From: Candidatus Doudnabacteria bacterium
GTDB lineage: Bacteria; Patescibacteriota; Doudnabacteria; UBA920
Direction: 5' to 3'
Length of the DNA stretch: 64,000 nucleotides
Assembly (NCBI GenBank): GCA_016788665.1
Contig: JAEUSF010000002.1
Location: 73,387-137,386, forward strand
The notes under the pieces were generated by a model that saw only the letters and a list, made by a program, of their open reading frames with translations, was not told where the DNA came from and searched no databases. Shown here piece by piece: positions 559 to 27,752 of the stretch (within the stretch, counting starts at the first letter, position 1; every line of letters begins with the position of its first letter). Both the position numbers and the translations under genes were made by a program.

Positions 559-2079
559 ATGCACGAAAAGTCTAACGCCTCAAAAGCAGCAAGCACGCAA
601 TTATACGACCTGATATTTTTAAGCCTCCTGATGATTTTAGCTACCGCAATTTCGGCTTACTTTCTCCTACACCAAAGCATACGCCTGGACGAGTCACAAA
701 GTCTCTGGCAAAGCAGTCGCTCCTTAAAAGGGCTTATAAAAACCATCTCCCAAGATGTACACATGCCTTTATATTCGGTACTCCTACATTTATGGCAGCG
801 CTTAGTAGGTAACTCAATAGAAACAGCTAGAATACCCTCGTTATTTTTCTTTCTGCTTTCTATACCTGCTTTATATTCATTAGGCAAGCAAGCCTTCCAA
901 AAAAATATCGCTCGCTTTGCCTGCTTACTTTTTTCACTATCCCCCTTTATAAGCTGGTACGGAAACGAAACAAGAATGTACAGCCTTCTTACCTTGCTGA
1001 CCATTTTAAACCAGATCAGTTTCTTAAAACTAATAAGCAGCCTACAAAATAACCAGAACCATAGAATACTTTGGGCTTATTTTAGTCTGACCACCATCTT
1101 AGGAATATACACGCATTATTTTTTTTGGCTGGTTTTAACAACTCAATTTTTTTATCTTCTACTGACACACAAAAATTTATTAAAAAAATACTTTAATACT
1201 TTTATACTGATGCTAGGAATAATTTTATGCTCATTTGTCCCCTGGGTTTTACAAGTATTAAAAGTTGGCTTCTTTTCCAACACCACACCTCTCATAAATC
1301 TTCCAACTTATCTAAATCTTTTTAATAGTTTTACTCAATTTATTTTTGGCTTTCAAGCAGAAAAAATAAATACAATCATACTGTCTTTATGGCCAATAAC
1401 AGTATTAATGCTGTTCTTTTACCTGCAAAAAAATAACCGTCTAGACAAAAACGCTTTATATTTTTTACTAACCGCTTTTTTACCTCCCTTACTTATTTTT
1501 CTTATCAGCATAACAATTCGCCCCATTTTTGTTACCAGATACTTTATCTTCACCGTGCCCAGTTTGTTTTTATTTCTTAGCTGGCTTATATATGCCTACA
1601 GTAAAACTGTCTCCTATTTGCTCAAAACAACATTTGTATCAGCCATGATTTGCACGCTCTACTTACAAAATGTTTTACCCAACGCTCCCATTAAAGAAAA
1701 CTATCGTGCAGCCGCCTCCTACTTATCCTCCCAGTCTTCAAACCAAGATCTAATTGCAATTTCCGCCCCCTTCACCATATACCCCATAGAGTACTACTAC
1801 CAAGGTCCGGCGAAACTCGTGACAATCCCTTCCTGGAACCGATACGAAATAGGTCCGGTGCCTGAATTCTCGTTGGAAAATTTAAACTCGGAAAGCAAAA
1901 ATTTTGAGAAAGTTTACCAAAAAGTCTGGCTTGTGCTTTCGTACGACCAAGGTGAGGAAGCAGAAATAAAAAAATATTTTGATGAAAAATATCATAAAGT
2001 CGATGAACTCGTAATTTCAAACGGCCTCCGTTTATATGCCTACAAGCTCAGATACGACCCCCCAGTTTCCATACAATAA
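559..2079 (+). CDS. Integral membrane glycosyltransferase, GT39/GT83 (PMT/ArnT-like) family
   Basis: 506 aa with about 11 predicted TM helices. A DE-containing first extracytoplasmic loop (RLDESQS) and a soluble C-terminal domain give ArnT/PMT-like topology. Confidence 0.5.
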   Translation: MHEKSNASKAASTQLYDLIFLSLLMILATAISAYFLLHQSIRLDESQSLWQSSRSLKGLIKTISQDVHMPLYSVLLHLWQRLVGNSIETARIPSLFFFLLSIPALYSLGKQAFQKNIARFACLLFSLSPFISWYGNETRMYSLLTLLTILNQISFLKLISSLQNNQNHRILWAYFSLTTILGIYTHYFFWLVLTTQFFYLLLTHKNLLKKYFNTFILMLGIILCSFVPWVLQVLKVGFFSNTTPLINLPTYLNLFNSFTQFIFGFQAEKINTIILSLWPITVLMLFFYLQKNNRLDKNALYFLLTAFLPPLLIFLISITIRPIFVTRYFIFTVPSLFLFLSWLIYAYSKTVSYLLKTTFVSAMICTLYLQNVLPNAPIKENYRAAASYLSSQSSNQDLIAISAPFTIYPIEYYYQGPAKLVTIPSWNRYEIGPVPEFSLENLNSESKNFEKVYQKVWLVLSYDQGEEAEIKKYFDEKYHKVDELVISNGLRLYAYKLRYDPPVSIQ

Positions 2080-2087
2080 AGACGCGG

Positions 2088-3425
2088 TTATTTTGACAAT
2101 TTTGCCAACCCTAATGCATATTCAGGCCAAAATACTCCCGGCCCTGGCCCACCGTTACAACTCCCATCACTTTCTCCGGGAGGCTTTATCCAAAGATATG
2201 CATCTATACGCTCCTTACCAGTATTTAATGTCGGAACATTTCCAAGTGCCCTGCCGGAAGGATTACACCATTCGGAACCCAAAGCACCAAGGCCGTTTCT
2301 ACCAGTATCAATTACAAAATGCTTTCCTCCCACATAACTAGAAATTTTTTGTCCATATTCTGCATTTAAGCCAGTTTCAATAAAATTTGAAACATTCAAG
2401 CTAAATCCGTCGGCAGACCCAATACCCGATCGCTTTAGTCTGTCCGCCATTTCACTCGCACTCACCCAATTTGGATGCCCCGCATCCAAATACACATTTG
2501 TTCCATATTTTGTTTTTAAAATTTCAACTGCTTTCTTTAAAATTTCATACCGGGTATTTTTCAGCTGAGCATCTAAACAATCCGAAAGCGCTAAAGCATC
2601 GGGCTCTAAAATTATAATCGATTTTCCGTTTAAACCACTTGAAAAATCTGTTACCCATTTTAAGTATTTTTCCGCACTAGAACTACCCCCTGCGGAAAAC
2701 CCACCACAGTCACGAATAGGTATATTGTAAATAACAAGTACCGGAATTTTATTTTCAGTCTTGGCAGCAGTAACGATTTTTTCAACGTCTGCCTTTATAT
2801 TTTTATTCCACTCCCCAAACCATACGGCGGTTGGCTGTTTTAACTTTTCCATATATTTTACATCTTGCCCCCTCTGAACTTTCCAACTACTCATAACCTC
2901 ATCTAACATAATGCGCTTGGGTTCATATAAGCCCGAATCACCAGTTCGCGCACTTACCAAACCAACGGCTGGGGAAATAGACACAAGTGCAGAGCTATTT
3001 TGATTTTTCATCTGCTGTAAACTTAAAGAACTTTCTGCCTCCCCTATTTTCTTACCTTCGTAATCATAAGCTATAAAATTAATCCTGTAGGGTCCCAAGC
3101 CTTTCCAATTCCAACCACTAACATCTACAATCGCTTCTTTATGAGGATAGTCATGATAGCTATTATACATTTGGTTTAACTGGCCTCCATCAACCTGCCA
3201 AAACATATGATAAGTTTCTACAACGCGCCCTTGAACAACAGCCTTAAAAGGCTGCTGACCACTAACCTGCGCCATACGAACTGGCCACCAAATCTCAAGA
3301 GACTGCCAATCTGCTTCGACTTCAAAATTACGAAGGCCTCCCAAAACACTACCACTTACTACTAATACAACGAGTATTTTCACTCCTAAGCCGCACCTAA
3401 AAACATAACGTAAAATATTTATCAT
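2088..3425 (-). CDS. Secreted glycoside hydrolase family 6 (endoglucanase/cellobiohydrolase-like) with an N-terminal extra domain
   Basis: Signal peptide or TM anchor at the N-terminus. GH6 signatures are present: IYNIPIRDCGG (catalytic Asp region), IIILEPDALA (EPDSL-like), DAGHPNWV and WIKPPGESDG near the C-terminus. Confidence 0.7.
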   Translation of the reverse strand: MINILRYVFRCGLGVKILVVLVVSGSVLGGLRNFEVEADWQSLEIWWPVRMAQVSGQQPFKAVVQGRVVETYHMFWQVDGGQLNQMYNSYHDYPHKEAIVDVSGWNWKGLGPYRINFIAYDYEGKKIGEAESSLSLQQMKNQNSSALVSISPAVGLVSARTGDSGLYEPKRIMLDEVMSSWKVQRGQDVKYMEKLKQPTAVWFGEWNKNIKADVEKIVTAAKTENKIPVLVIYNIPIRDCGGFSAGGSSSAEKYLKWVTDFSSGLNGKSIIILEPDALALSDCLDAQLKNTRYEILKKAVEILKTKYGTNVYLDAGHPNWVSASEMADRLKRSGIGSADGFSLNVSNFIETGLNAEYGQKISSYVGGKHFVIDTGRNGLGALGSEWCNPSGRALGNVPTLNTGKERIDAYLWIKPPGESDGSCNGGPGPGVFWPEYALGLAKLSK

Positions 3426-3688: not shown

Positions 3689-4063
3689 ATGAAAAATATT
3701 CTGTACCATTTATTATTTTTAGTATTTATATCGCTCATAAGCGGGTTTGTTTTACTTGGTCAGGCAGGGCAACTAGAACTTAACCAGGCGCTCGCAGTAA
3801 GCGGGGGTTTGGTACTCTATGCTTTAGCAATGGTTTTTGTCGGAGAAACCAAAGAAACAGACCAGCGCCAAAGTAACTTTAAAAATGTTTCTGCTAAAAC
3901 AGGGCTCACTGCAGCAATAGCAGTCTTATGCTTAGGACTTATGTATCAAATGCTTTTTACCAACACAATTGACTGGTGGCTTATAGCAAGCTTGGTAGCT
4001 ATAAATTTAACAAAGCTTATAACGCTAATTTTTTTAAACACCAACTCTAAGAGCCAGGTTTAA
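3689..4063 (+). CDS. Small membrane protein, unknown function
   Basis: 124 aa with 3-4 hydrophobic helices. Extended -10 element TGGTAAAAT about 25 nt upstream. Confidence 0.3.
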   Translation: MKNILYHLLFLVFISLISGFVLLGQAGQLELNQALAVSGGLVLYALAMVFVGETKETDQRQSNFKNVSAKTGLTAAIAVLCLGLMYQMLFTNTIDWWLIASLVAINLTKLITLIFLNTNSKSQV

Positions 4064-5417
4064 TTACCGTTAAAGCATTTCCACCCTCCAAAACCACAAA
4101 GAATTTTTCATCTTCACAATCAAAATCAACAGCCTTGGAATGTAAATCCAAGGCTGTTTTAAAATTTAAAACTAACCCATTTTTCGCCCAAACTTGGAAT
4201 TCCTTATCTTGTTCGTTAGTCGCTAAAAATATCCACCCAGACCTTTCAAATATTCCATTTACACTTGTATTTATATCCTGGCTAAAATCAGACAGTAAAG
4301 GCATAAAATTCAAATTGTTAAAAAAGTACAGCTGTTCGTATGCCCCGGCTACCAGCCCTGTCCTGCCGAAATACAGCTTGTCTCCTGCCAAATACAAAGC
4401 ATTGCCGTGTAATATACCGCTTCCATTGGGAGAAAAATTCGAAACTTCAACAATATTCGCCGGGTCCGAAACATTTAGAACCCAAACTTGCTTAACAGAA
4501 GGCGTGGCCACGTAGGCATAATTTCCGCTAACTTTTATGCTATTTGCAGTAGTTCCAAGCTCAAAAGACCCTTCTGCCCTTGGTGCACTAGGGTCTGTAA
4601 CATCTATAATGTAAAATTCTCGACTCTGCGATATTTCAGTGCCCAAGTAAATTCTTAAATTAGAATAATATAAACTCCTACCCGACGCAGCGCTTCCCGT
4701 AACATAGCTATAAACTAAAAAGGGCTCAGAGGGGTTTGAAATATTTATTATTTGCAGCTGGCTAACTGTGCTCAAATTTACCACATACGCCAAATCACCC
4801 ACCACCTTCACCCCACCCAAGCCCGGACCCGTATTTATAGAAGCAACCATGTGCGGATTTTCGGGCACAGAAATATCTACCACAAAAAAATCAGCGGACT
4901 GCAAAGTAGAAGAGTCGGCAGTTATATACGCAAACTTACCTTTTACATCTATGCCCGTAGCTTTTTCTCCCGTACCTAGAAATATTTGCCCGGGCAAAAC
5001 CGTTGGACTAGTCCAATTTCCCTTGAGGCTCAACCCGCAAGCATCACCTTCCCTAAAAGCGTCTTTGTGTATGTACACAAAAAACATTTCTGTCACACCT
5101 TGAGGCCAGAACACCTGACTTACAACTTTTCGCGACCAATTATTTATATACTGGGCCGAAACATTAACCCGAAACACTTCTTTAATTATAGTTTTGTTTA
5201 TAACAGCATTAAATTCGTTTTCAATTTCTGCTTTAGCAGCCTCCAATTCCGCCTGAGCTAATATAACCGCCTGCATATGAAGCTCTGAACGAAGCGCTAA
5301 AGACTGGTTTAAAAAAACCAAAGAAAAAACCGAAGCTGAAACTCCGGCAAGTAAAAATAACCCAACTATAGCTTCCAAGGATGCAAACCCTATTTTTCTT
5401 ACAACAGGATTCGCCAT
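4047..5417 (-). CDS. Type IV pilin-like protein: prepilin N-terminus fused to an LVIVD-repeat (beta-propeller-like) domain
   Basis: N-terminus KIGFASLEAIVGLFLLAG is a class III signal (G/F cleavage site with E at +5). The body carries repeated hydrophobic-x-V-hydrophobic-N/D-hydrophobic-S/T-D/N-P-S/A motifs, for example AYVVNLS...ISNPSEP, FYIIDVTDPSAP and VWVLNVSDPANI. Confidence 0.5.
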   Translation of the reverse strand: MANPVVRKIGFASLEAIVGLFLLAGVSASVFSLVFLNQSLALRSELHMQAVILAQAELEAAKAEIENEFNAVINKTIIKEVFRVNVSAQYINNWSRKVVSQVFWPQGVTEMFFVYIHKDAFREGDACGLSLKGNWTSPTVLPGQIFLGTGEKATGIDVKGKFAYITADSSTLQSADFFVVDISVPENPHMVASINTGPGLGGVKVVGDLAYVVNLSTVSQLQIINISNPSEPFLVYSYVTGSAASGRSLYYSNLRIYLGTEISQSREFYIIDVTDPSAPRAEGSFELGTTANSIKVSGNYAYVATPSVKQVWVLNVSDPANIVEVSNFSPNGSGILHGNALYLAGDKLYFGRTGLVAGAYEQLYFFNNLNFMPLLSDFSQDINTSVNGIFERSGWIFLATNEQDKEFQVWAKNGLVLNFKTALDLHSKAVDFDCEDEKFFVVLEGGNALTVIKPGS

Positions 5418-5421
5418 AATT

Positions 5422-6159
5422 CTATTCTCCTATTATCTCAGCTTTCACCAAATACCTTTTTAAAGCGGTTCCTATGGGGTAAGAAGTTTGTAAGCTCAAA
5501 ATTTTTCGACCTTCCGTATTTTGTGACAATACGGTTACATCGTCTGAATCAACAACACGCGTCTCATAAACTTTATACACGTACTCATATCCTTGCCTGT
5601 CAGTTATATTTATATAGTCCCCAATTTTAATCTCAGGCAACCTAGCAAACACACTCTTGAAATTTCCTTTTTTATACAAAAAATCCGACGAGTGCCCAAA
5701 AATGTAAACATTTCCAGCCAGACCCGCTTCTGCTGTCCCCATATAATGAACAACTCCGTTTTCCAAATTTTCCTGTAAGATTTTTTCTTCAGTCGAAGTT
5801 GCGTAAACTATAGGAGCTTGTATATTTAGCGTTGGTATTGCCAATAAATCAGGCTGTCCTTTTGGCCTAATGTTTTTAATGGGTAAATTACTTTCGTCGT
5901 AAGTCAAAAACACCTTAGGCCAAATAAGCGCCTTTATTTTTTCAGCAAAGTAACTTAAATTTAAAACCACAAACCCTAAAAGAACCGTGGAAAAAAATAT
6001 TCCATAAGTCTTTTTCCAATTTCGAGGATTTGTTTTTTCAAACCACTTTTTTCTAACTTCCTGTTCCGACACAACAGAAACTTTCACACGGCTTCTCGGC
6101 AAACTTTTTACTTTTTTATTTGTTTTTTTTTCGCTCTGCTTCATACTAGTAAAAAACAC
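5422..6159 (-). CDS. Sortase-family transpeptidase homolog (Ser at the catalytic Cys position)
   Basis: N-terminal TM anchor and a sortase-fold pattern: VYIFGHSS (His motif), GDYINITDRQGYEYVYKV, and a TLxTC-like strand ILSLQTSYP followed by Arg (KRYLV). The Cys codon position reads tct (Ser) on the minus strand at 5482-5484. Confidence 0.6.
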   Translation of the reverse strand: MFFTSMKQSEKKTNKKVKSLPRSRVKVSVVSEQEVRKKWFEKTNPRNWKKTYGIFFSTVLLGFVVLNLSYFAEKIKALIWPKVFLTYDESNLPIKNIRPKGQPDLLAIPTLNIQAPIVYATSTEEKILQENLENGVVHYMGTAEAGLAGNVYIFGHSSDFLYKKGNFKSVFARLPEIKIGDYINITDRQGYEYVYKVYETRVVDSDDVTVLSQNTEGRKILSLQTSYPIGTALKRYLVKAEIIGE

Positions 6160-6189
6160 CCTTAGACTTTGCTCAGGGTGTTTTTAGAT

Positions 6190-7437
6190 TTAGTCGTTGA
6201 ATTTTCTTCCAAACTTTCTGGCAGTTACAAACGAACCGGCCAAAACACCTAAATAGGCTAAAGCGGAAACAGGTCCCGTAACTGGCAAAGAGGTTGCCGC
6301 ACCTTTTACTTCGCCCACAGGCATGGGAACAGGGAGGGAATTTAGGTTTGCTGGCATACTAGTGCTTACGCCCGCAACCTGACCTGAGCTAGAACCACCA
6401 GAACCACCCGAAGGCGGAGTTGGCACTCCACTACCTCCAGAAGAAGGGGCAGGGCCACCGCCGCTTCCACCACCCGAACCGCCGCCGCCACTACCGCCGC
6501 CGGAAGGAGGAGTCAGACTGAAGTGCGCATTAGCTACTAAATTACCGGTTATAACAAAAGTACAGATAGGATTATTGCTGCCTATGCATGGACCGGAAGT
6601 CCAGGTGTCAGCAAAAGTTGAACCCGAGTCAGGAGTTGCGGTTAAAGTAACCTCTGTACCAGAAACATAAGTTTGAGAACAATCCTCGCCGCAGTTTATG
6701 CCTTCATCTGAACTATTAACAGTACCGGTACCGTCACCATTTTTAGTAACAGTTAAAGTATATTCCGGATTTTCCAAGTCATCTACAGTTACAGTACAAG
6801 TTTTTTCCTCACCGTTGGAAACTGTGGAATTACAGTCAGCAGAATATGAGTAAGCATAGCCTCCGTCTGAAACCAAAGTCACACCATAAGCACCAGAGTT
6901 TATATTGCTAGTCACCCCTGCTTCGGAACCGACAAAAGTTGTTAAAACTGGAGAGGTAGCGGTCAAATTTACAGTAAAATCTGGAGCTGCTTTAGTGCCA
7001 CTATTGTCATTGGTCACATTAACCACCACTTTAACTTTTCCAGGCTTTGAAGTGTTTGTAATAGTACAGGTAACGTCGTCACCAGAAGCCAAAGTTCCGC
7101 TGCAACCGCTATAACTTGCTTGGTATGCCGGCTCTTCGGTTTCGGTAATGTTAAAGCTACCTTCAATAGGGGTTAAAACTGTACCGGTTTCTTCACCAGG
7201 AAAGGTTTGCAAAAATATAGGCACGCCTGGCAAAGGAGGAATAACTACTGCGGTAATACTAAAGTTACCCGCAGTTTTACTGCCACCATTGTCATTTATA
7301 ACGTGCTTAATAACGGTAATCGTACCGTTTCCCAGAAGAGGAGCGTCGTCGGCTTTTACATGGCTAAAGTAAGCAATTTGAGAAATAATTGCTACCGAAA
7401 CAAACGTCTTGTATAAAAAAGATTTATATAAATTCAT
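6190..7437 (-). CDS. LPXTG-anchored surface protein with repeated Cna-B/prealbumin-like domains and a Gly/Ser-rich stalk
   Basis: Signal peptide at the N-terminus. Repeated T-C-T-(I/V)-T modules and a (GGS)n linker are present. The C-terminus LPVTG plus hydrophobic segment plus RKFGRKF is a classic sortase sorting signal. Confidence 0.7.
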   Translation of the reverse strand: MNLYKSFLYKTFVSVAIISQIAYFSHVKADDAPLLGNGTITVIKHVINDNGGSKTAGNFSITAVVIPPLPGVPIFLQTFPGEETGTVLTPIEGSFNITETEEPAYQASYSGCSGTLASGDDVTCTITNTSKPGKVKVVVNVTNDNSGTKAAPDFTVNLTATSPVLTTFVGSEAGVTSNINSGAYGVTLVSDGGYAYSYSADCNSTVSNGEEKTCTVTVDDLENPEYTLTVTKNGDGTGTVNSSDEGINCGEDCSQTYVSGTEVTLTATPDSGSTFADTWTSGPCIGSNNPICTFVITGNLVANAHFSLTPPSGGGSGGGGSGGGSGGGPAPSSGGSGVPTPPSGGSGGSSSGQVAGVSTSMPANLNSLPVPMPVGEVKGAATSLPVTGPVSALAYLGVLAGSFVTARKFGRKFND

Positions 7438-7500
7438 ATTGTTTATGCAAATAATTTTTTAAGTTTTTTATTTTCCCAATTATAACATATATTTAACATC

Positions 7501-7529
7501 TTGACAAGACCCCTTAAAATAGGTATAAT
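7501..7529 (+). promoter_or_regulatory. Perfect sigma70 consensus promoter TTGACA-17-TATAAT, followed by AGGAGG RBS at 7549-7554
   Basis: TTGACA at 7501-7506, a 17-nt spacer and TATAAT at 7524-7529. AGGAGG lies 8 nt before the ATG at 7563. Confidence 0.6.
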
Positions 7530-7562
7530 TTACAACACTATCCTAGCTAGGAGGATCCTCGA

Positions 7563-8033
7563 ATGAGGAAACTTGTTCTCTGTTTGTTTCTCACGGTCGC
7601 TGCAAACGCAGCTACCGTAAACATCTACCCCACGCTCGACTGCACCGTCGGAGGCACTTCGGCAGCCACAACAGGGCTGTGTGCAAATCCCAACGGTCCG
7701 ACCACAGTTGGGTTTGTTGTTGTAACCAACGACATGCTCAACCCCAGCGACCAGAACGACTGGGTCCAGGTCCTGGAGTTTCCGAATGCCGGTGGCGGCG
7801 TTGCCACCAACTTTCGACTCTACTCCGATCCGTTGACGTTTCCGAGCTTCGGCTCGGCGTCAACTACGGTGCCGTTTGCTACCCTATTTTCTGTATACAA
7901 CCCCGCGCAGGGGTTTGTGTACAACATCTACAACCCGCCTACCAACGGGGGCGGTAATGTTCCCGAGTCCGGCACCATGCTTATGGTTGCCGGAGGACTC
8001 GCAGGAATTGTTGCAGTCCGCCGAAAGGGCTGA
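7563..8033 (+). CDS. GC-rich secreted protein with a PEP-CTERM-like C-terminal sorting signal (VPESG-TM-RRKG)
   Basis: Signal peptide MRKLVLCLFLTVAANAA. C-terminus ...GNVPESGTMLMVAGGLAGIVAVRRKG. The ORF is about 58% GC against an AT-rich background. Confidence 0.55.
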   Translation: MRKLVLCLFLTVAANAATVNIYPTLDCTVGGTSAATTGLCANPNGPTTVGFVVVTNDMLNPSDQNDWVQVLEFPNAGGGVATNFRLYSDPLTFPSFGSASTTVPFATLFSVYNPAQGFVYNIYNPPTNGGGNVPESGTMLMVAGGLAGIVAVRRKG

Positions 8034-8099: not shown

Positions 8100-8642
8100 C
8101 TATCTAGTTATACAAATAGGTCCTGTGCCAGCCAAAGCTGGTTCTACTGTCATTGCGCATACCGTAACCCTGCCACTTGTGTCTCTATACACAGAATAAC
8201 CGGTATCATAATCATCGTCCGTCGCCCACGATGCGGTTGTCGGAGTAGTGGTGCTCGGGTCAAATGGCATAGAAGTTATATAAGTAGGAACCAAACATTC
8301 AGCAATGTCGTAATACGACTGATTGGTTTTTTCACCCATACGTACTGCCGTTACCTCACTCACAGCAGAACTTGGTATGTCGGTACAGCCACTGCCTGGA
8401 AAAACACCTTTATTGTCTGCCACCCGCTGACCAATAGCGTTTAAAATTGCGTTAACATTACTGGTCCTCTGGGTGTTTCGGCTTTGAGCAAACTGCCTGG
8501 CAGGATTAATGGCAATTAAAACAATAACAGCCAAGACAGCTATCATGCCCATAACCACCAAAATTTCTATAAGCGTAAAACCTTTGTTTAACAAAGTGTA
8601 ATTTTTATTTTGCATAAATAAAATTAAATTATTAAATAGCAA
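8100..8642 (-). CDS. pilA: Type IV major pilin (PilA-like); probable true start at the Met 9 codons downstream (about 8615)
   Basis: MQNKNYTLLNKGFTLIEILVVMGMIAVLAVIV is a canonical prepilin leader (G|FTLIE) with a hydrophobic alpha1 helix. Cys pair in the C-terminal region. Confidence 0.75.
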   Translation of the reverse strand: MLFNNLILFMQNKNYTLLNKGFTLIEILVVMGMIAVLAVIVLIAINPARQFAQSRNTQRTSNVNAILNAIGQRVADNKGVFPGSGCTDIPSSAVSEVTAVRMGEKTNQSYYDIAECLVPTYITSMPFDPSTTTPTTASWATDDDYDTGYSVYRDTSGRVTVCAMTVEPALAGTGPICITR

Positions 8643-8684
8643 AAATTTATTTATGACGTGTCTAAAAAATACTGCATAAATTTT

Positions 8685-26012: not shown

Positions 26013-26749
26013 GATGGGAGTCTTCTGGAAGACTCCCATCTTTTTTATTCGTCAATTAACAATTTTTCTAAATCTTTTCGCTCCCTGATTCTCTCGTAAC
26101 TATTTTCTACAAAACTTTCATAGCCATCGCTCGATTGCATATCTAAGATAAACTTTTTTTCACATAAAGTACCATTCCGCACACCCAAATAATCTAAATA
26201 GCTGCTCCATTGATACTTTTTAAGGCTCTCAACAATGCCTGAAACTTTTGGGTTCTGGTGTATATAAGCCGAAAGCCAAGCTAATTGGGAATCATTTTTT
26301 ATCAGCACTGACTTGAAAGCATCTTGGAAAAGATGCCCCACTCTACCATACTTCTTGTTAAAATATTTACTATAGCTGGTACAAATTTTAGAAACTAACT
26401 TACTTATTTCTGTATCTCCGTTTTGTCGGATTAATAAATGAAAATGGTTTGGCATTAAGCAATAACACAATAGTGTAAAAGCATCTGCTGGCAAACTTTT
26501 TCTTATATAGGAACCTCCAAGGTTTTTTTCGGCAAACGGCATGTTTTTTAAGGGAAATAAATTTTCTTTTAACCTGTAAAGAAAAAACTTAAAGTCATCT
26601 TCATCTTTAAAAATATCCATTTTCCCTACGCCACGGTTAAAAACATGATAACAAGCTTTAGGCGCAAAGTTTTTATAATCCCTATTGTTCATAGCCTACT
26701 GCTTATGCTTTAAACAAGTTTTGATGGGAGTCTTCTGGAAGACTCCCAT
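26013..26749. mobile_element. IS200/IS605-family minimal element (or RAYT/REP-like unit): Y1 HUH transposase flanked by identical 28-nt hairpins
   Basis: GATGGGAGTCTTCTGGAAGACTCCCATC occurs at 26013-26040 and again at 26722-26749 in the same orientation. The two copies flank only the tnpA gene, for a total of about 737 bp. Confidence 0.7.
26045..26692 (-). CDS. tnpA: IS200/IS605-family Y1 (HUH) transposase TnpA / REP-associated tyrosine transposase
   Basis: CYHVFNRG near the N-terminus, HUH motif LMPNHFHLL, and catalytic Tyr-containing helix (SYSKYFNKKY). Confidence 0.8.
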   Translation of the reverse strand: MNNRDYKNFAPKACYHVFNRGVGKMDIFKDEDDFKFFLYRLKENLFPLKNMPFAEKNLGGSYIRKSLPADAFTLLCYCLMPNHFHLLIRQNGDTEISKLVSKICTSYSKYFNKKYGRVGHLFQDAFKSVLIKNDSQLAWLSAYIHQNPKVSGIVESLKKYQWSSYLDYLGVRNGTLCEKKFILDMQSSDGYESFVENSYERIRERKDLEKLLIDE

Positions 26750-26774
26750 CATTCCAATATGCTATAATTGTAAC

Positions 26775-27752
26775 ATGAATAAACAAACCGTGGTCGGTGG
26801 TATTAGGCCCACCAACAAACTTCATATTGGCAACTACCTGGGCGCTTTAAAACAGTTTGTAGCTATAAGCAACGACAATCAAATTACCTCTTATTTCTTT
26901 ATTGTTGACCTGCATTCCTTAACCACTCCATTTGAACCAAAAGAACTTAAGACAAACATACTGGATGCTGCGGCCACTTACTTAGCCGCTGGTTTTAACC
27001 CAAAAAATTCCAATCTGTTCATCCAAAGTCATATACCAGAGCATGCTGAATTGGCCTGGATATTTAACTGCATAACTCCTTTAGGCGAACTGGAACGTAT
27101 GACCCAGTTTAAAGAAAAATCCCAACAACACGCAACCAATATTAACGCCGGGCTCTTAAGTTATCCGGTTTTAATGGCAGCCGATATTTTAATATATAAA
27201 CCAAACGGTGTATCGGTAGGAGAAGATCAGGTGCAACACGTTGAGCTGTCACGGGTGATTGCAAGAAAATTCAATAACAAATTTGGCAATACTTTTCCAG
27301 AACCCCAAACTTACATAAGAAAGCCATTGCGTATAATGTCACTCACGGATCCGACTAAAAAAATGAGCAAAACTGGCGACGAAGCCCTAAATATGGACGA
27401 CGAACCAAAAGAAATAGCAAGAAAGCTTAAAAAGGCCGTCACCGCATCAGAACCAGGAAAAAAATCTCCCGGTGAAGAAAACTTAATGTTTTTACTTAAC
27501 CACTTTGGTTCCGAAGAATCGGTACGACACTTTACCGAAGCACAAAACAGTGGCAAACTAAAATATTTTGAGCTCAAAGAAACCTTAGCTCAAAATATTT
27601 CCGACTACTTTGCGGAATTTCGAGAAAAGAAAAAAGAACTACTTTCCAAACCAGATTACTTGGCCCAAGTTTTAGGTGACGGTGCAAGAAAAGCAAGGGA
27701 AACTGCTCACAAAACAATCACCGAAGTCAAACAAAAAATCGGACTCCTATAA
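26775..27752 (+). CDS. trpS: Tryptophan--tRNA ligase (likely start is the ATG at 26775; the ORF is open from 26685)
   Basis: Class I aaRS HIGH-type motif (KLHIGNYLGAL) and KMSKT motif. About 325 aa. TATAAT lies 5 nt upstream of the ATG, leaderless-like. Confidence 0.9.
   Translation: MNKQTVVGGIRPTNKLHIGNYLGALKQFVAISNDNQITSYFFIVDLHSLTTPFEPKELKTNILDAAATYLAAGFNPKNSNLFIQSHIPEHAELAWIFNCITPLGELERMTQFKEKSQQHATNINAGLLSYPVLMAADILIYKPNGVSVGEDQVQHVELSRVIARKFNNKFGNTFPEPQTYIRKPLRIMSLTDPTKKMSKTGDEALNMDDEPKEIARKLKKAVTASEPGKKSPGEENLMFLLNHFGSEESVRHFTEAQNSGKLKYFELKETLAQNISDYFAEFREKKKELLSKPDYLAQVLGDGARKARETAHKTITEVKQKIGLL

Follow-up and report, generated by a model that had tools for sequence, protein, structure and literature searches.

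The stretch of DNA analysed here (the window) comprises 64,000 nucleotides of a Candidatus Doudnabacteria bacterium (contig JAEUSF010000002.1 of assembly GCA_016788665.1, positions 73,387 to 137,386). On its minus strand, it contains a gene for a sortase homolog with serine at the position of the catalytic cysteine (5422..6144), directly downstream of a gene for a 415-aa secreted surface protein that ends in an LPVTG sorting signal (6190..7437). Sortases are textbook cysteine transpeptidases (MEROPS C60), and, to our knowledge, all described sortase classes (A-F) use cysteine; a serine at this site would surprise a sortase specialist.

The sortase gene encodes 240 aa when read from the ATG at 6144 and 245 aa when read from the GTG at 6159. 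The corresponding NCBI protein (P0001, "sortase [Candidatus Doudnabacteria bacterium]") is 240 aa long, starts at the same ATG and shows 100% identity to the window protein. Because the GTG lies inside the stem of a terminator-like hairpin, described below, the 240-aa form is the likelier product and the start was taken as 6144; the residue numbers used here (His156, Ser226, Arg235, etc.) are those of the 245-aa open reading frame (ORF). The original prediction, made from the letters alone, had described the signature of a sortase in this protein, with serine (TCT) as the nucleophile in L-S-L-Q-T-S-Y-P, and each of its elements was found. A basic N-terminus precedes a hydrophobic membrane anchor (YGIFFSTVLLGFVVLNLSYF, 5947..6006 on the minus strand, residues ~52-71), which AlphaFold2 models as a helix (residues 41-61 in the 240-aa numbering). 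The catalytic His equivalent, His156, lies in FGHSSD (codon CAC, 5692..5694) and is followed by the GDYINITD...YEYVYKV segment. The nucleophile strand LSLQTSYP carries Gln224 (CAA, 5488..5490) and, two residues later on the same face of the strand, Ser226 (TCT, 5482..5484); the equivalent of the conserved sortase Arg is Arg235 (AGG, 5455..5457). All these codons are on the minus strand. As had been pointed out, TCT is a single G/C transversion from the Cys codon TGT. The protein contains no cysteine at all; as read from the sequence, it has no DP[FWY] motif, and it ends in KAEIIGE with no C-terminal transmembrane (TM) segment.

Profile and structure comparisons place this protein in the sortase family. 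The Pfam Sortase model (PF04203) scored 84.8 bits against a cutoff of 26.6 (E=5e-24), and TIGR01076 scored 50.0 bits against 39.35. In HMMER alignments to the solved sortases 4d70, 4d7w, 8t28 and 6ixz, the LQTS residues fall on the xxTC motif, with Ser226 exactly on the catalytic Cys, while His156 and Arg235 match the catalytic His and Arg. The best PDB profile match, Clostridium perfringens SrtD (4d70, E=1.8e-18), likewise aligns S on C. The AlphaFold2 model, based on 61 homologs, has a mean predicted local distance difference test (pLDDT) score of 87.6, with most of the catalytic domain above 90. Using Foldseek, we found that all 50 PDB matches listed were sortases (E 2e-11 to 2e-9), the top ones belonging to classes C/D/A/E, and the best chains aligned over about 143-160 columns at 2.2-2.7 A.

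The protein reached no curated class model that we tried: it scored 63.2 against 165 and 63.8 against 140 for the class D models NF033746 and NF058671, 40.5 against 160 for class E (NF033747), 39.7 against 160 for class C (NF033745) and 34.8 against 166 for class F. The substrates described below also differ from those of these classes. They carry LPVTG or LPRTG and not the LPxTA(TN) of class D, and the second position of the motif is Pro in 67/67 substrates and not the Ala of the class E motif LAxTG. As for class C, the lid motif DP[FWY] and the C-terminal TM segment are missing, and the one substrate gene present has no YPKN-type motif. The catalytic Cys of TLxTC, which defines the family, is replaced by Ser226. 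Since no class model was reached and the catalytic Cys is absent, we did not file the protein in any of the classes A-F; it is a bona fide sortase homolog by descent and not a cysteine transpeptidase.

Conservation of the serine in the Ser-type clade

When 1.84 billion cluster representatives (50% identity) were scanned exhaustively with HMMER, 4,713 hits were obtained at E<=1e-3, 95 of them at E<=1e-30. A word-seeded search had also returned Ser in 120/120 homologs; as this search is biased towards shared pentapeptides and hits bearing QTSYP, we relied on the exhaustive scan instead. Alignment of its best 150 hits, which include one truncated sequence, separated 118 Ser-type from 32 Cys-type proteins. 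Every hit down to E~1e-29 carries L-Q-T-S-[YW]-P-x-G-T...R, and relatives that have Cys, in the motif L-[IM]-T-C-x-P-x-G-T...[KR]R, begin at E=3.7e-29 (P0214). Thus, Ser at the nucleophile position is a clade-wide trait and not a single transversion in one genome.

Within the Ser clade, the catalytic residues are conserved at least as well as in the Cys relatives. Both His and Ser are present in 118/118 sequences, Arg in 117/118 (the exception is truncated) and the Thr preceding the nucleophile in 115/118; the catalytic His is also found in 32/32 Cys relatives. Ala, Gly and Thr never occur at the nucleophile site among these 118 clusters, which share less than 50% identity. The most diagnostic change accompanying the serine is Gln at position -2, found in 117/118 members of the Ser clade versus Met or Ile in 31/32 Cys relatives. 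Tyr or Trp at position +1 (residue 227) also co-varies with Ser. The original prediction had named a different conserved Cys at the active site as an observation that would overturn it. None was found: the catalytic domains of 97/118 clade members, like the window protein, have no Cys whatsoever, and no alignment column is conserved for Cys.

At the DNA level, scanning a single genome for each GTDB species gave 166 loci, of which 80 (L001-L080) were fetched and analysed. The nucleophile codon in the 81 motif instances of these 80 loci is TCT (30), TCC (20), TCG (20), TCA (9) or AGC (2), and the ortholog in L001, with 67% identity and the same synteny, has Ser too. This turnover among five Ser codons indicates long-term purifying selection on serine; neither a sequencing error nor a recent point mutation nor recoding can account for it.

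To place the change in the tree, we masked the nucleophile, -2 and +1 columns and built a neighbor-joining tree. In an unrooted bipartition test of this tree, a single branch has 31/32 Cys sequences on one side and the 118 Ser sequences, joined by P0235 as the only one with Cys, on the other. The nearest relatives of the clade are Cys sortases of the candidate phyla radiation (CPR), such as P0214, P0235 and P0242, which NCBI names class D or E and which show 36-45% identity. They share with the Ser clade the GHSS(D) motif, the PxGT..R block, the N-terminal anchor and the superphylum; they differ in the retained Cys, in the hydrophobic residue at -2 and, P0235 excepted, in their separate branch. 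The alignment against sortase classes and CPR sortases that the original prediction called for sets Ser on Cys and puts the CPR Cys types closest. The few Cys relatives with a taxon name belong to Peregrinibacteria, genetic-code-4 bacteria or the "Patescibacteria group", and none is labelled Doudnabacteria. Based on these sequence comparisons, the clade probably arose by a single ancient Cys-to-Ser switch from Cys-type CPR sortases.

Judging from the sequences and their records, this serine defines a large clade that has Candidatus Doudnabacteria (Patescibacteria/CPR) at its centre. At least 118 clusters at 50% identity belong to it, and at least 80 species-level genomes that carry the gene were confirmed, with matched LPxTG substrates retained. 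By record title, 17 of the 80 loci are from Candidatus Doudnabacteria, 11 from the "Patescibacteria group" and one from Candidatus Paceibacter, and the rest are metagenome-assembled genomes (MAGs) with generic labels. Of the third-party-annotation MAG records with this Patescibacteria-type gene pair, about 34 are named "Candidatus Saccharibacteria" and eleven "uncultured Gammaproteobacteria"; such labels (e.g., those of L020, L031, L055 and L072) look like placeholders and are unfit for inferring host range.

In six clade members of 311-369 aa (P0129, P0150, P0174, P0180, P0182 and P0194), the membrane anchor and the catalytic domain are separated by an additional domain. Asp repeats of the type DTD(G/S)DG are abundant in this domain in five of the six and absent from P0174, and PF18884 is recorded for P0129. 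None of the six has an LPxTG motif of its own.

The LPxTG gene adjacent to the sortase

The original prediction had also reported a neighbouring gene whose product ends in LPVTG, a TM segment and a basic tail, and this gene is indeed found at 6190..7437 on the minus strand. Based on Pfam matches and on reading of the ORF, its product consists of a signal peptide, two prealbumin-like SpaA_2 regions (PF19403, E=1.6e-8), an InlB-B-repeat-like region (PF18998, E=5.8e-8) and a Gly/Ser/Pro linker. The C-terminus reads ...VKGAATS-LPVTG-PVSALAYLGVLAGSFVTA-RKFGRKFND, in which the sorting motif (codons TTG CCA GTT ACG GGA, 6274..6288 on the minus strand) precedes a hydrophobic segment and a basic tail. 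Only two ORFs of the window have a C-terminus resembling a sorting signal, this gene being one of them.

The pairing extends across the clade. For 67/83 Ser-sortase genes, the adjacent upstream ORF on the same strand encodes LP[RVK]TG followed by a TM segment and a basic tail, with LPRTG in 56 cases, LPVTG in nine and LPKTG in two. The median size of the upstream LPxTG proteins is 846 aa, and the longest has 1,965 aa. Two further loci have an LPxTG protein a few kb away and one further locus has a fusion. In an all-against-all comparison of the 80 loci, the LPxTG gene was the sole conserved neighbour of the Ser-type sortase. An adjacent LPxTG gene was not found in the one Cys-relative context examined (L081).

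Additionally, the stretch preceding the motif is conserved, with an extended consensus of (Q)VLGA-x-T-E-LPRTG and the version E-V-K-G-A-A-T-S-LPVTG in the window. This sequence conservation N-terminal to LPxTG suggests a recognition element longer than the pentapeptide.

In three or four lineages, substrate and Ser-type sortase are fused. Three cluster representatives are single ORFs that join a surface domain, LPRTG, a TM segment, a basic stretch, a second TM segment and the Ser-type sortase: P0126 (L041 8858-10429, from a MAG that NCBI assigns to Doudnabacteria), P0145 and P0167. These fusions provide a Rosetta-stone argument for a direct relation between enzyme and substrate. As they hold both in one polypeptide, self-processing would be possible in them.

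No second sortase homolog was present in the 64-kb window, and the 1.19 Mb of sequence around the 80 Ser-type sortases contained 82 sortases of the Ser type and none of the Cys type.

Proposed catalysis and alternative explanations

We consider it probable, on the evidence of conservation and gene pairing, that the window protein is an active sortase with a Ser226-His156-Arg235 catalytic site, dedicated to processing the surface protein encoded upstream. After Sec export, the C-terminal TM segment and basic tail would hold the substrate in the membrane, where the membrane-anchored enzyme would recognise the (V[LK]GAxT/S)-LPVTG sequence of the product of the adjoining gene. Ser226 would attack the Thr-Gly bond to form an oxy-ester acyl-enzyme instead of a thio-ester, and an amine, most likely on a peptidoglycan precursor, would then resolve it, leaving the adhesin-like protein fixed to the cell wall. 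Gln224, which replaces a hydrophobic residue, is the best candidate for the adaptation that enables serine to act here, whether by positioning, activation or oxyanion stabilisation.

In serine DD-transpeptidases (penicillin-binding proteins, PBPs), acyl-enzymes formed on Ser are efficiently aminolysed, and this precedent makes a Ser sortase chemically feasible. Cell-wall transpeptidation is indeed carried out on either nucleophile, by serine DD-transpeptidases and cysteine LD-transpeptidases, with folds and substrates that differ from those of sortases. The proposed enzyme resembles the Cys sortases of classes A/C/D/E in its beta-barrel fold (Foldseek E~1e-11), its N-terminal anchor, its His and Arg, the Thr before the nucleophile and the adjacent substrate with LPxTG, a TM segment and a basic tail. 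It differs from them in the Ser nucleophile and in the Gln that the clade has in place of the hydrophobic x of TLxTC, and the window protein differs further in the absence of Cys. Rhombosortase, which acts with the GlyGly-CTERM signal (Haft 2011, PMC3237569), also combines a serine nucleophile with tripartite C-terminal signals; its fold is that of a rhomboid intramembrane protease and its signal is unrelated, and the likeness is one of analogy only. Sortases of CPR bacteria are already known (fam000526, PMC6744442). We found no description of a natural serine sortase in the full-text literature searched, which leaves out many subscription journals.

Several points weigh against an active Ser-type sortase. 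The comparisons show the fold, the residues and their conservation, the missing Cys, the turnover of Ser codons and the pairing or fusion with the substrate; that the enzyme is active, that it passes through an ester, which acceptor it uses and how Gln224 contributes is what we infer. We considered a Ser-His-Asp triad through Asp159 of GHSSD, which is present in 110/118 Ser sequences versus 6/32 Cys sequences, but the nearest Cys relatives (P0214, P0242 and P0219) share this Asp, and it is thus not specific to Ser. An LPxTG gene was not found in the fetched flanks of about 10/83 clade members. A Cys sortase may be encoded elsewhere in the same genomes, as the scans covered the flanks and the 64-kb window. 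The engineered C184S mutant of Staphylococcus aureus SrtA, which has the same substitution at the same position, loses most of its activity (PMC4827206), indicating that Ser fails in an unadapted sortase active site. Compared with that mutant, the natural clade has the co-varying Gln224 and Tyr/Trp227 and is under strong purifying selection.

An active Ser enzyme with a different outcome is unlikely, though it is the likeliest of the alternatives and, with a pseudo-enzyme, one of the two that we keep as live rivals. The enzyme could be a hydrolase of the sheddase type, or it could transfer its substrate to a lipid, to the S-layer or to a lysine of a pilus subunit. Oxy-ester acyl-enzymes go to water more readily than thio-esters, and this is the reason behind thiol-subtilisin; the conversion of subtilisin to thiol-subtilisin for ligation is discussed in PMC7921005. 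The pilin-like SpaA_2 domains of the substrate and the position of the locus inside a type IV pilus cluster in the window genome would also fit an altered acceptor. Nevertheless, the efficient aminolysis achieved by PBPs speaks against obligatory loss to water, the combination of a TM-plus-basic retention signal with a membrane-anchored enzyme fits classical sorting, the pilus context is conserved in only 5/80 loci, and no pilin motif was seen in the substrate.

We regard a pseudo-enzyme, which the original prediction had listed beside a genuine variant and a sequencing error, as somewhat less likely again. The protein would be a non-catalytic partner that binds LPxTG (a retention factor, chaperone or scaffold), and sorting would be done by another enzyme or not at all. 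Such a loss has a natural precedent in Trypanosoma brucei metacaspase 4, a Cys-to-Ser homologue that is a pseudo-peptidase (PMC3220528), and the near inactivity of SrtA C184S points the same way (PMC4827206), as does the lack of a proven acid partner or other obvious Ser-activating adaptation. However, a dead enzyme predicts drift and relaxed conservation of the catalytic residues, and the opposite is observed: His, Arg, Thr(-1) and Ser are strictly conserved over the 118 clusters and the changes among Ser codons are synonymous. The lack of Cys sortases in the 1.19 Mb of flanking DNA and of Doudnabacteria among the few named Cys relatives also argues against a second sorting enzyme, and the perfect LPxTG, TM segment and basic tail kept by the substrates in 67/83 cases indicate that processing is still selected. 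Of the three options initially listed, the active Ser-nucleophile variant is thus the best supported and the pseudo-enzyme is disfavoured.

Use of another nucleophile, either a different Cys or a recoded codon, is very improbable; we found no evidence for it, Cys residues are lacking as described above and the use of all standard Ser codon families at the site makes recoding implausible. A sequencing or assembly error or a recent inactivating TGT-to-TCT mutation in one genome, for which only the single-transversion distance speaks, has practically no likelihood given that independent assemblies show Ser in all 118 representatives of the clade and in all 120 close homologs, and that it is written with five codons, is accompanied by the change at Gln224 and is shared by the L001 ortholog.

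The broader proposition that Doudnabacteria and allied Patescibacteria have replaced the cysteine sortase with an oxy-ester serine sortase, with Ser-His-Arg catalysis and a helper Gln, seems to us evenly poised. If true, the sortase/C60 fold would have its first natural serine member, an LPxTG transpeptidase that works without a thiol. This would add a new natural Cys/Ser nucleophile swap, like that of the chymotrypsin-fold PA clan, and would show which second-shell changes (e.g., Gln at -2) lie behind it; the invariant Ser of so diverse a clade implies that the sortase scaffold is tunable to serine. Such an enzyme would offer protein engineering a redox-insensitive ligase, that is, a "sortagging" enzyme resistant to oxidation and thiol reagents, and it would be intrinsically insensitive to Cys-directed sortase inhibitors. 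The proposal also bears on the display of adhesins by ultra-small CPR episymbionts. It could be tested with one recombinant protein and one peptide (e.g., Abz-GAATSLPVTGPV-Dnp).

Expression signals and genomic surroundings

Upstream of the substrate gene, a consensus scan identified a promoter-like site on the minus strand (7479..7507) consisting of TTGTCA, a 17-nucleotide spacer and TATAAT with a TG extension, which matches the consensus at 11/12 positions. On the opposite strand, a 12/12 match of the sigma-70 type, TTGACA-17-TATAAT, is located at 7501-7529(+) and faces a PEP-CTERM-like gene; the intergenic region 7438-7562 holds divergent near-perfect putative promoters of the sigma-70 type. 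Between the substrate and sortase genes lies a terminator- or attenuator-like hairpin (AAAAACACCCU...AGGGUGUUUUUU, 6152..6185 on the minus strand) with a folding free energy of -16.5 kcal/mol and a z-score of -3.58 against shuffled sequences. It is flanked by an A-tract and a U-tract, and a consensus terminator scan missed it owing to its long loop. This hairpin may plausibly attenuate read-through, so that less enzyme than substrate would be made. The near-consensus promoter-like site, the tight gene spacing and the attenuator-like hairpin suggest that the locus is expressed.

Downstream of the sortase, a gene for an LVIVD-repeat beta-propeller with a prepilin-like N-terminus, KIG|FASLE (4047..5417 on the minus strand; PF08309, E=7e-22), starts 5 nucleotides past the sortase stop; it is part of the local operon and, being present in 5/80 loci, not of the conserved module. 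Both genes of the pair lie within a type IV pilus cluster, which on the minus strand at 8100-12316 has a T2SSE ATPase gene (11099-12316), a gene for a T2SSF platform protein (10015-11097) and several N_methyl pilin-like genes (8100-10018). We considered the type IV pilins, the LVIVD propeller and a small membrane protein as parts of the module and rejected them, as they are kept only in about 3-9 close loci. An N_methyl+LVIVD gene resembling that of the window is also found on the contig of P0235, the nearest Cys relative.

Divergent from the LPVTG gene, a gene at 7563-8033(+) encodes a small secreted protein whose tail, VPESGT-TM-RRKG, resembles PEP-CTERM. The protein scored 20.0 bits against a cutoff of 20.7 for PF07589 and 18.4 against 16 for TIGR02595, and the GC content of its gene at third codon positions (GC3) is 0.64, compared with 0.31-0.40 in every neighbouring gene. 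Four other genomes have GC-rich genes with VPEP or IPET tails (GC3 0.55-0.71 in loci of 0.39-0.46 GC) about 2.5 kb or less from the Ser-type sortase, namely L001 8002-8328(-), L026 2966-3661(+), L045 7427-8074(-) and L073 1130-1894(+). The PEP-CTERM/exosortase pair is a Gram-negative system, and none of the 54 long ORFs (at least 117 aa) of the window that were scanned against Pfam matched an exosortase family. The PEP-CTERM-like neighbour is unlikely to be a second substrate of the sortase, as its relatives bear classical VPEP or IPET and not LPxTG-like motifs.

Just beyond the pilus and sortase cluster (2088-3425(-) and 559-2079(+)) are genes for a GH6 protein of the cellulase type (PF01341, E=5e-59), a remarkable enzyme for a reduced CPR genome to carry, and for a PMT_2 glycosyltransferase. 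Farther along the window, an IS200-like (Y1_Tnp) transposase gene at 26045-26692(-) abuts a class I Trp/Tyr-tRNA synthetase gene at 26685-27752(+) and extends a few bases over its start.

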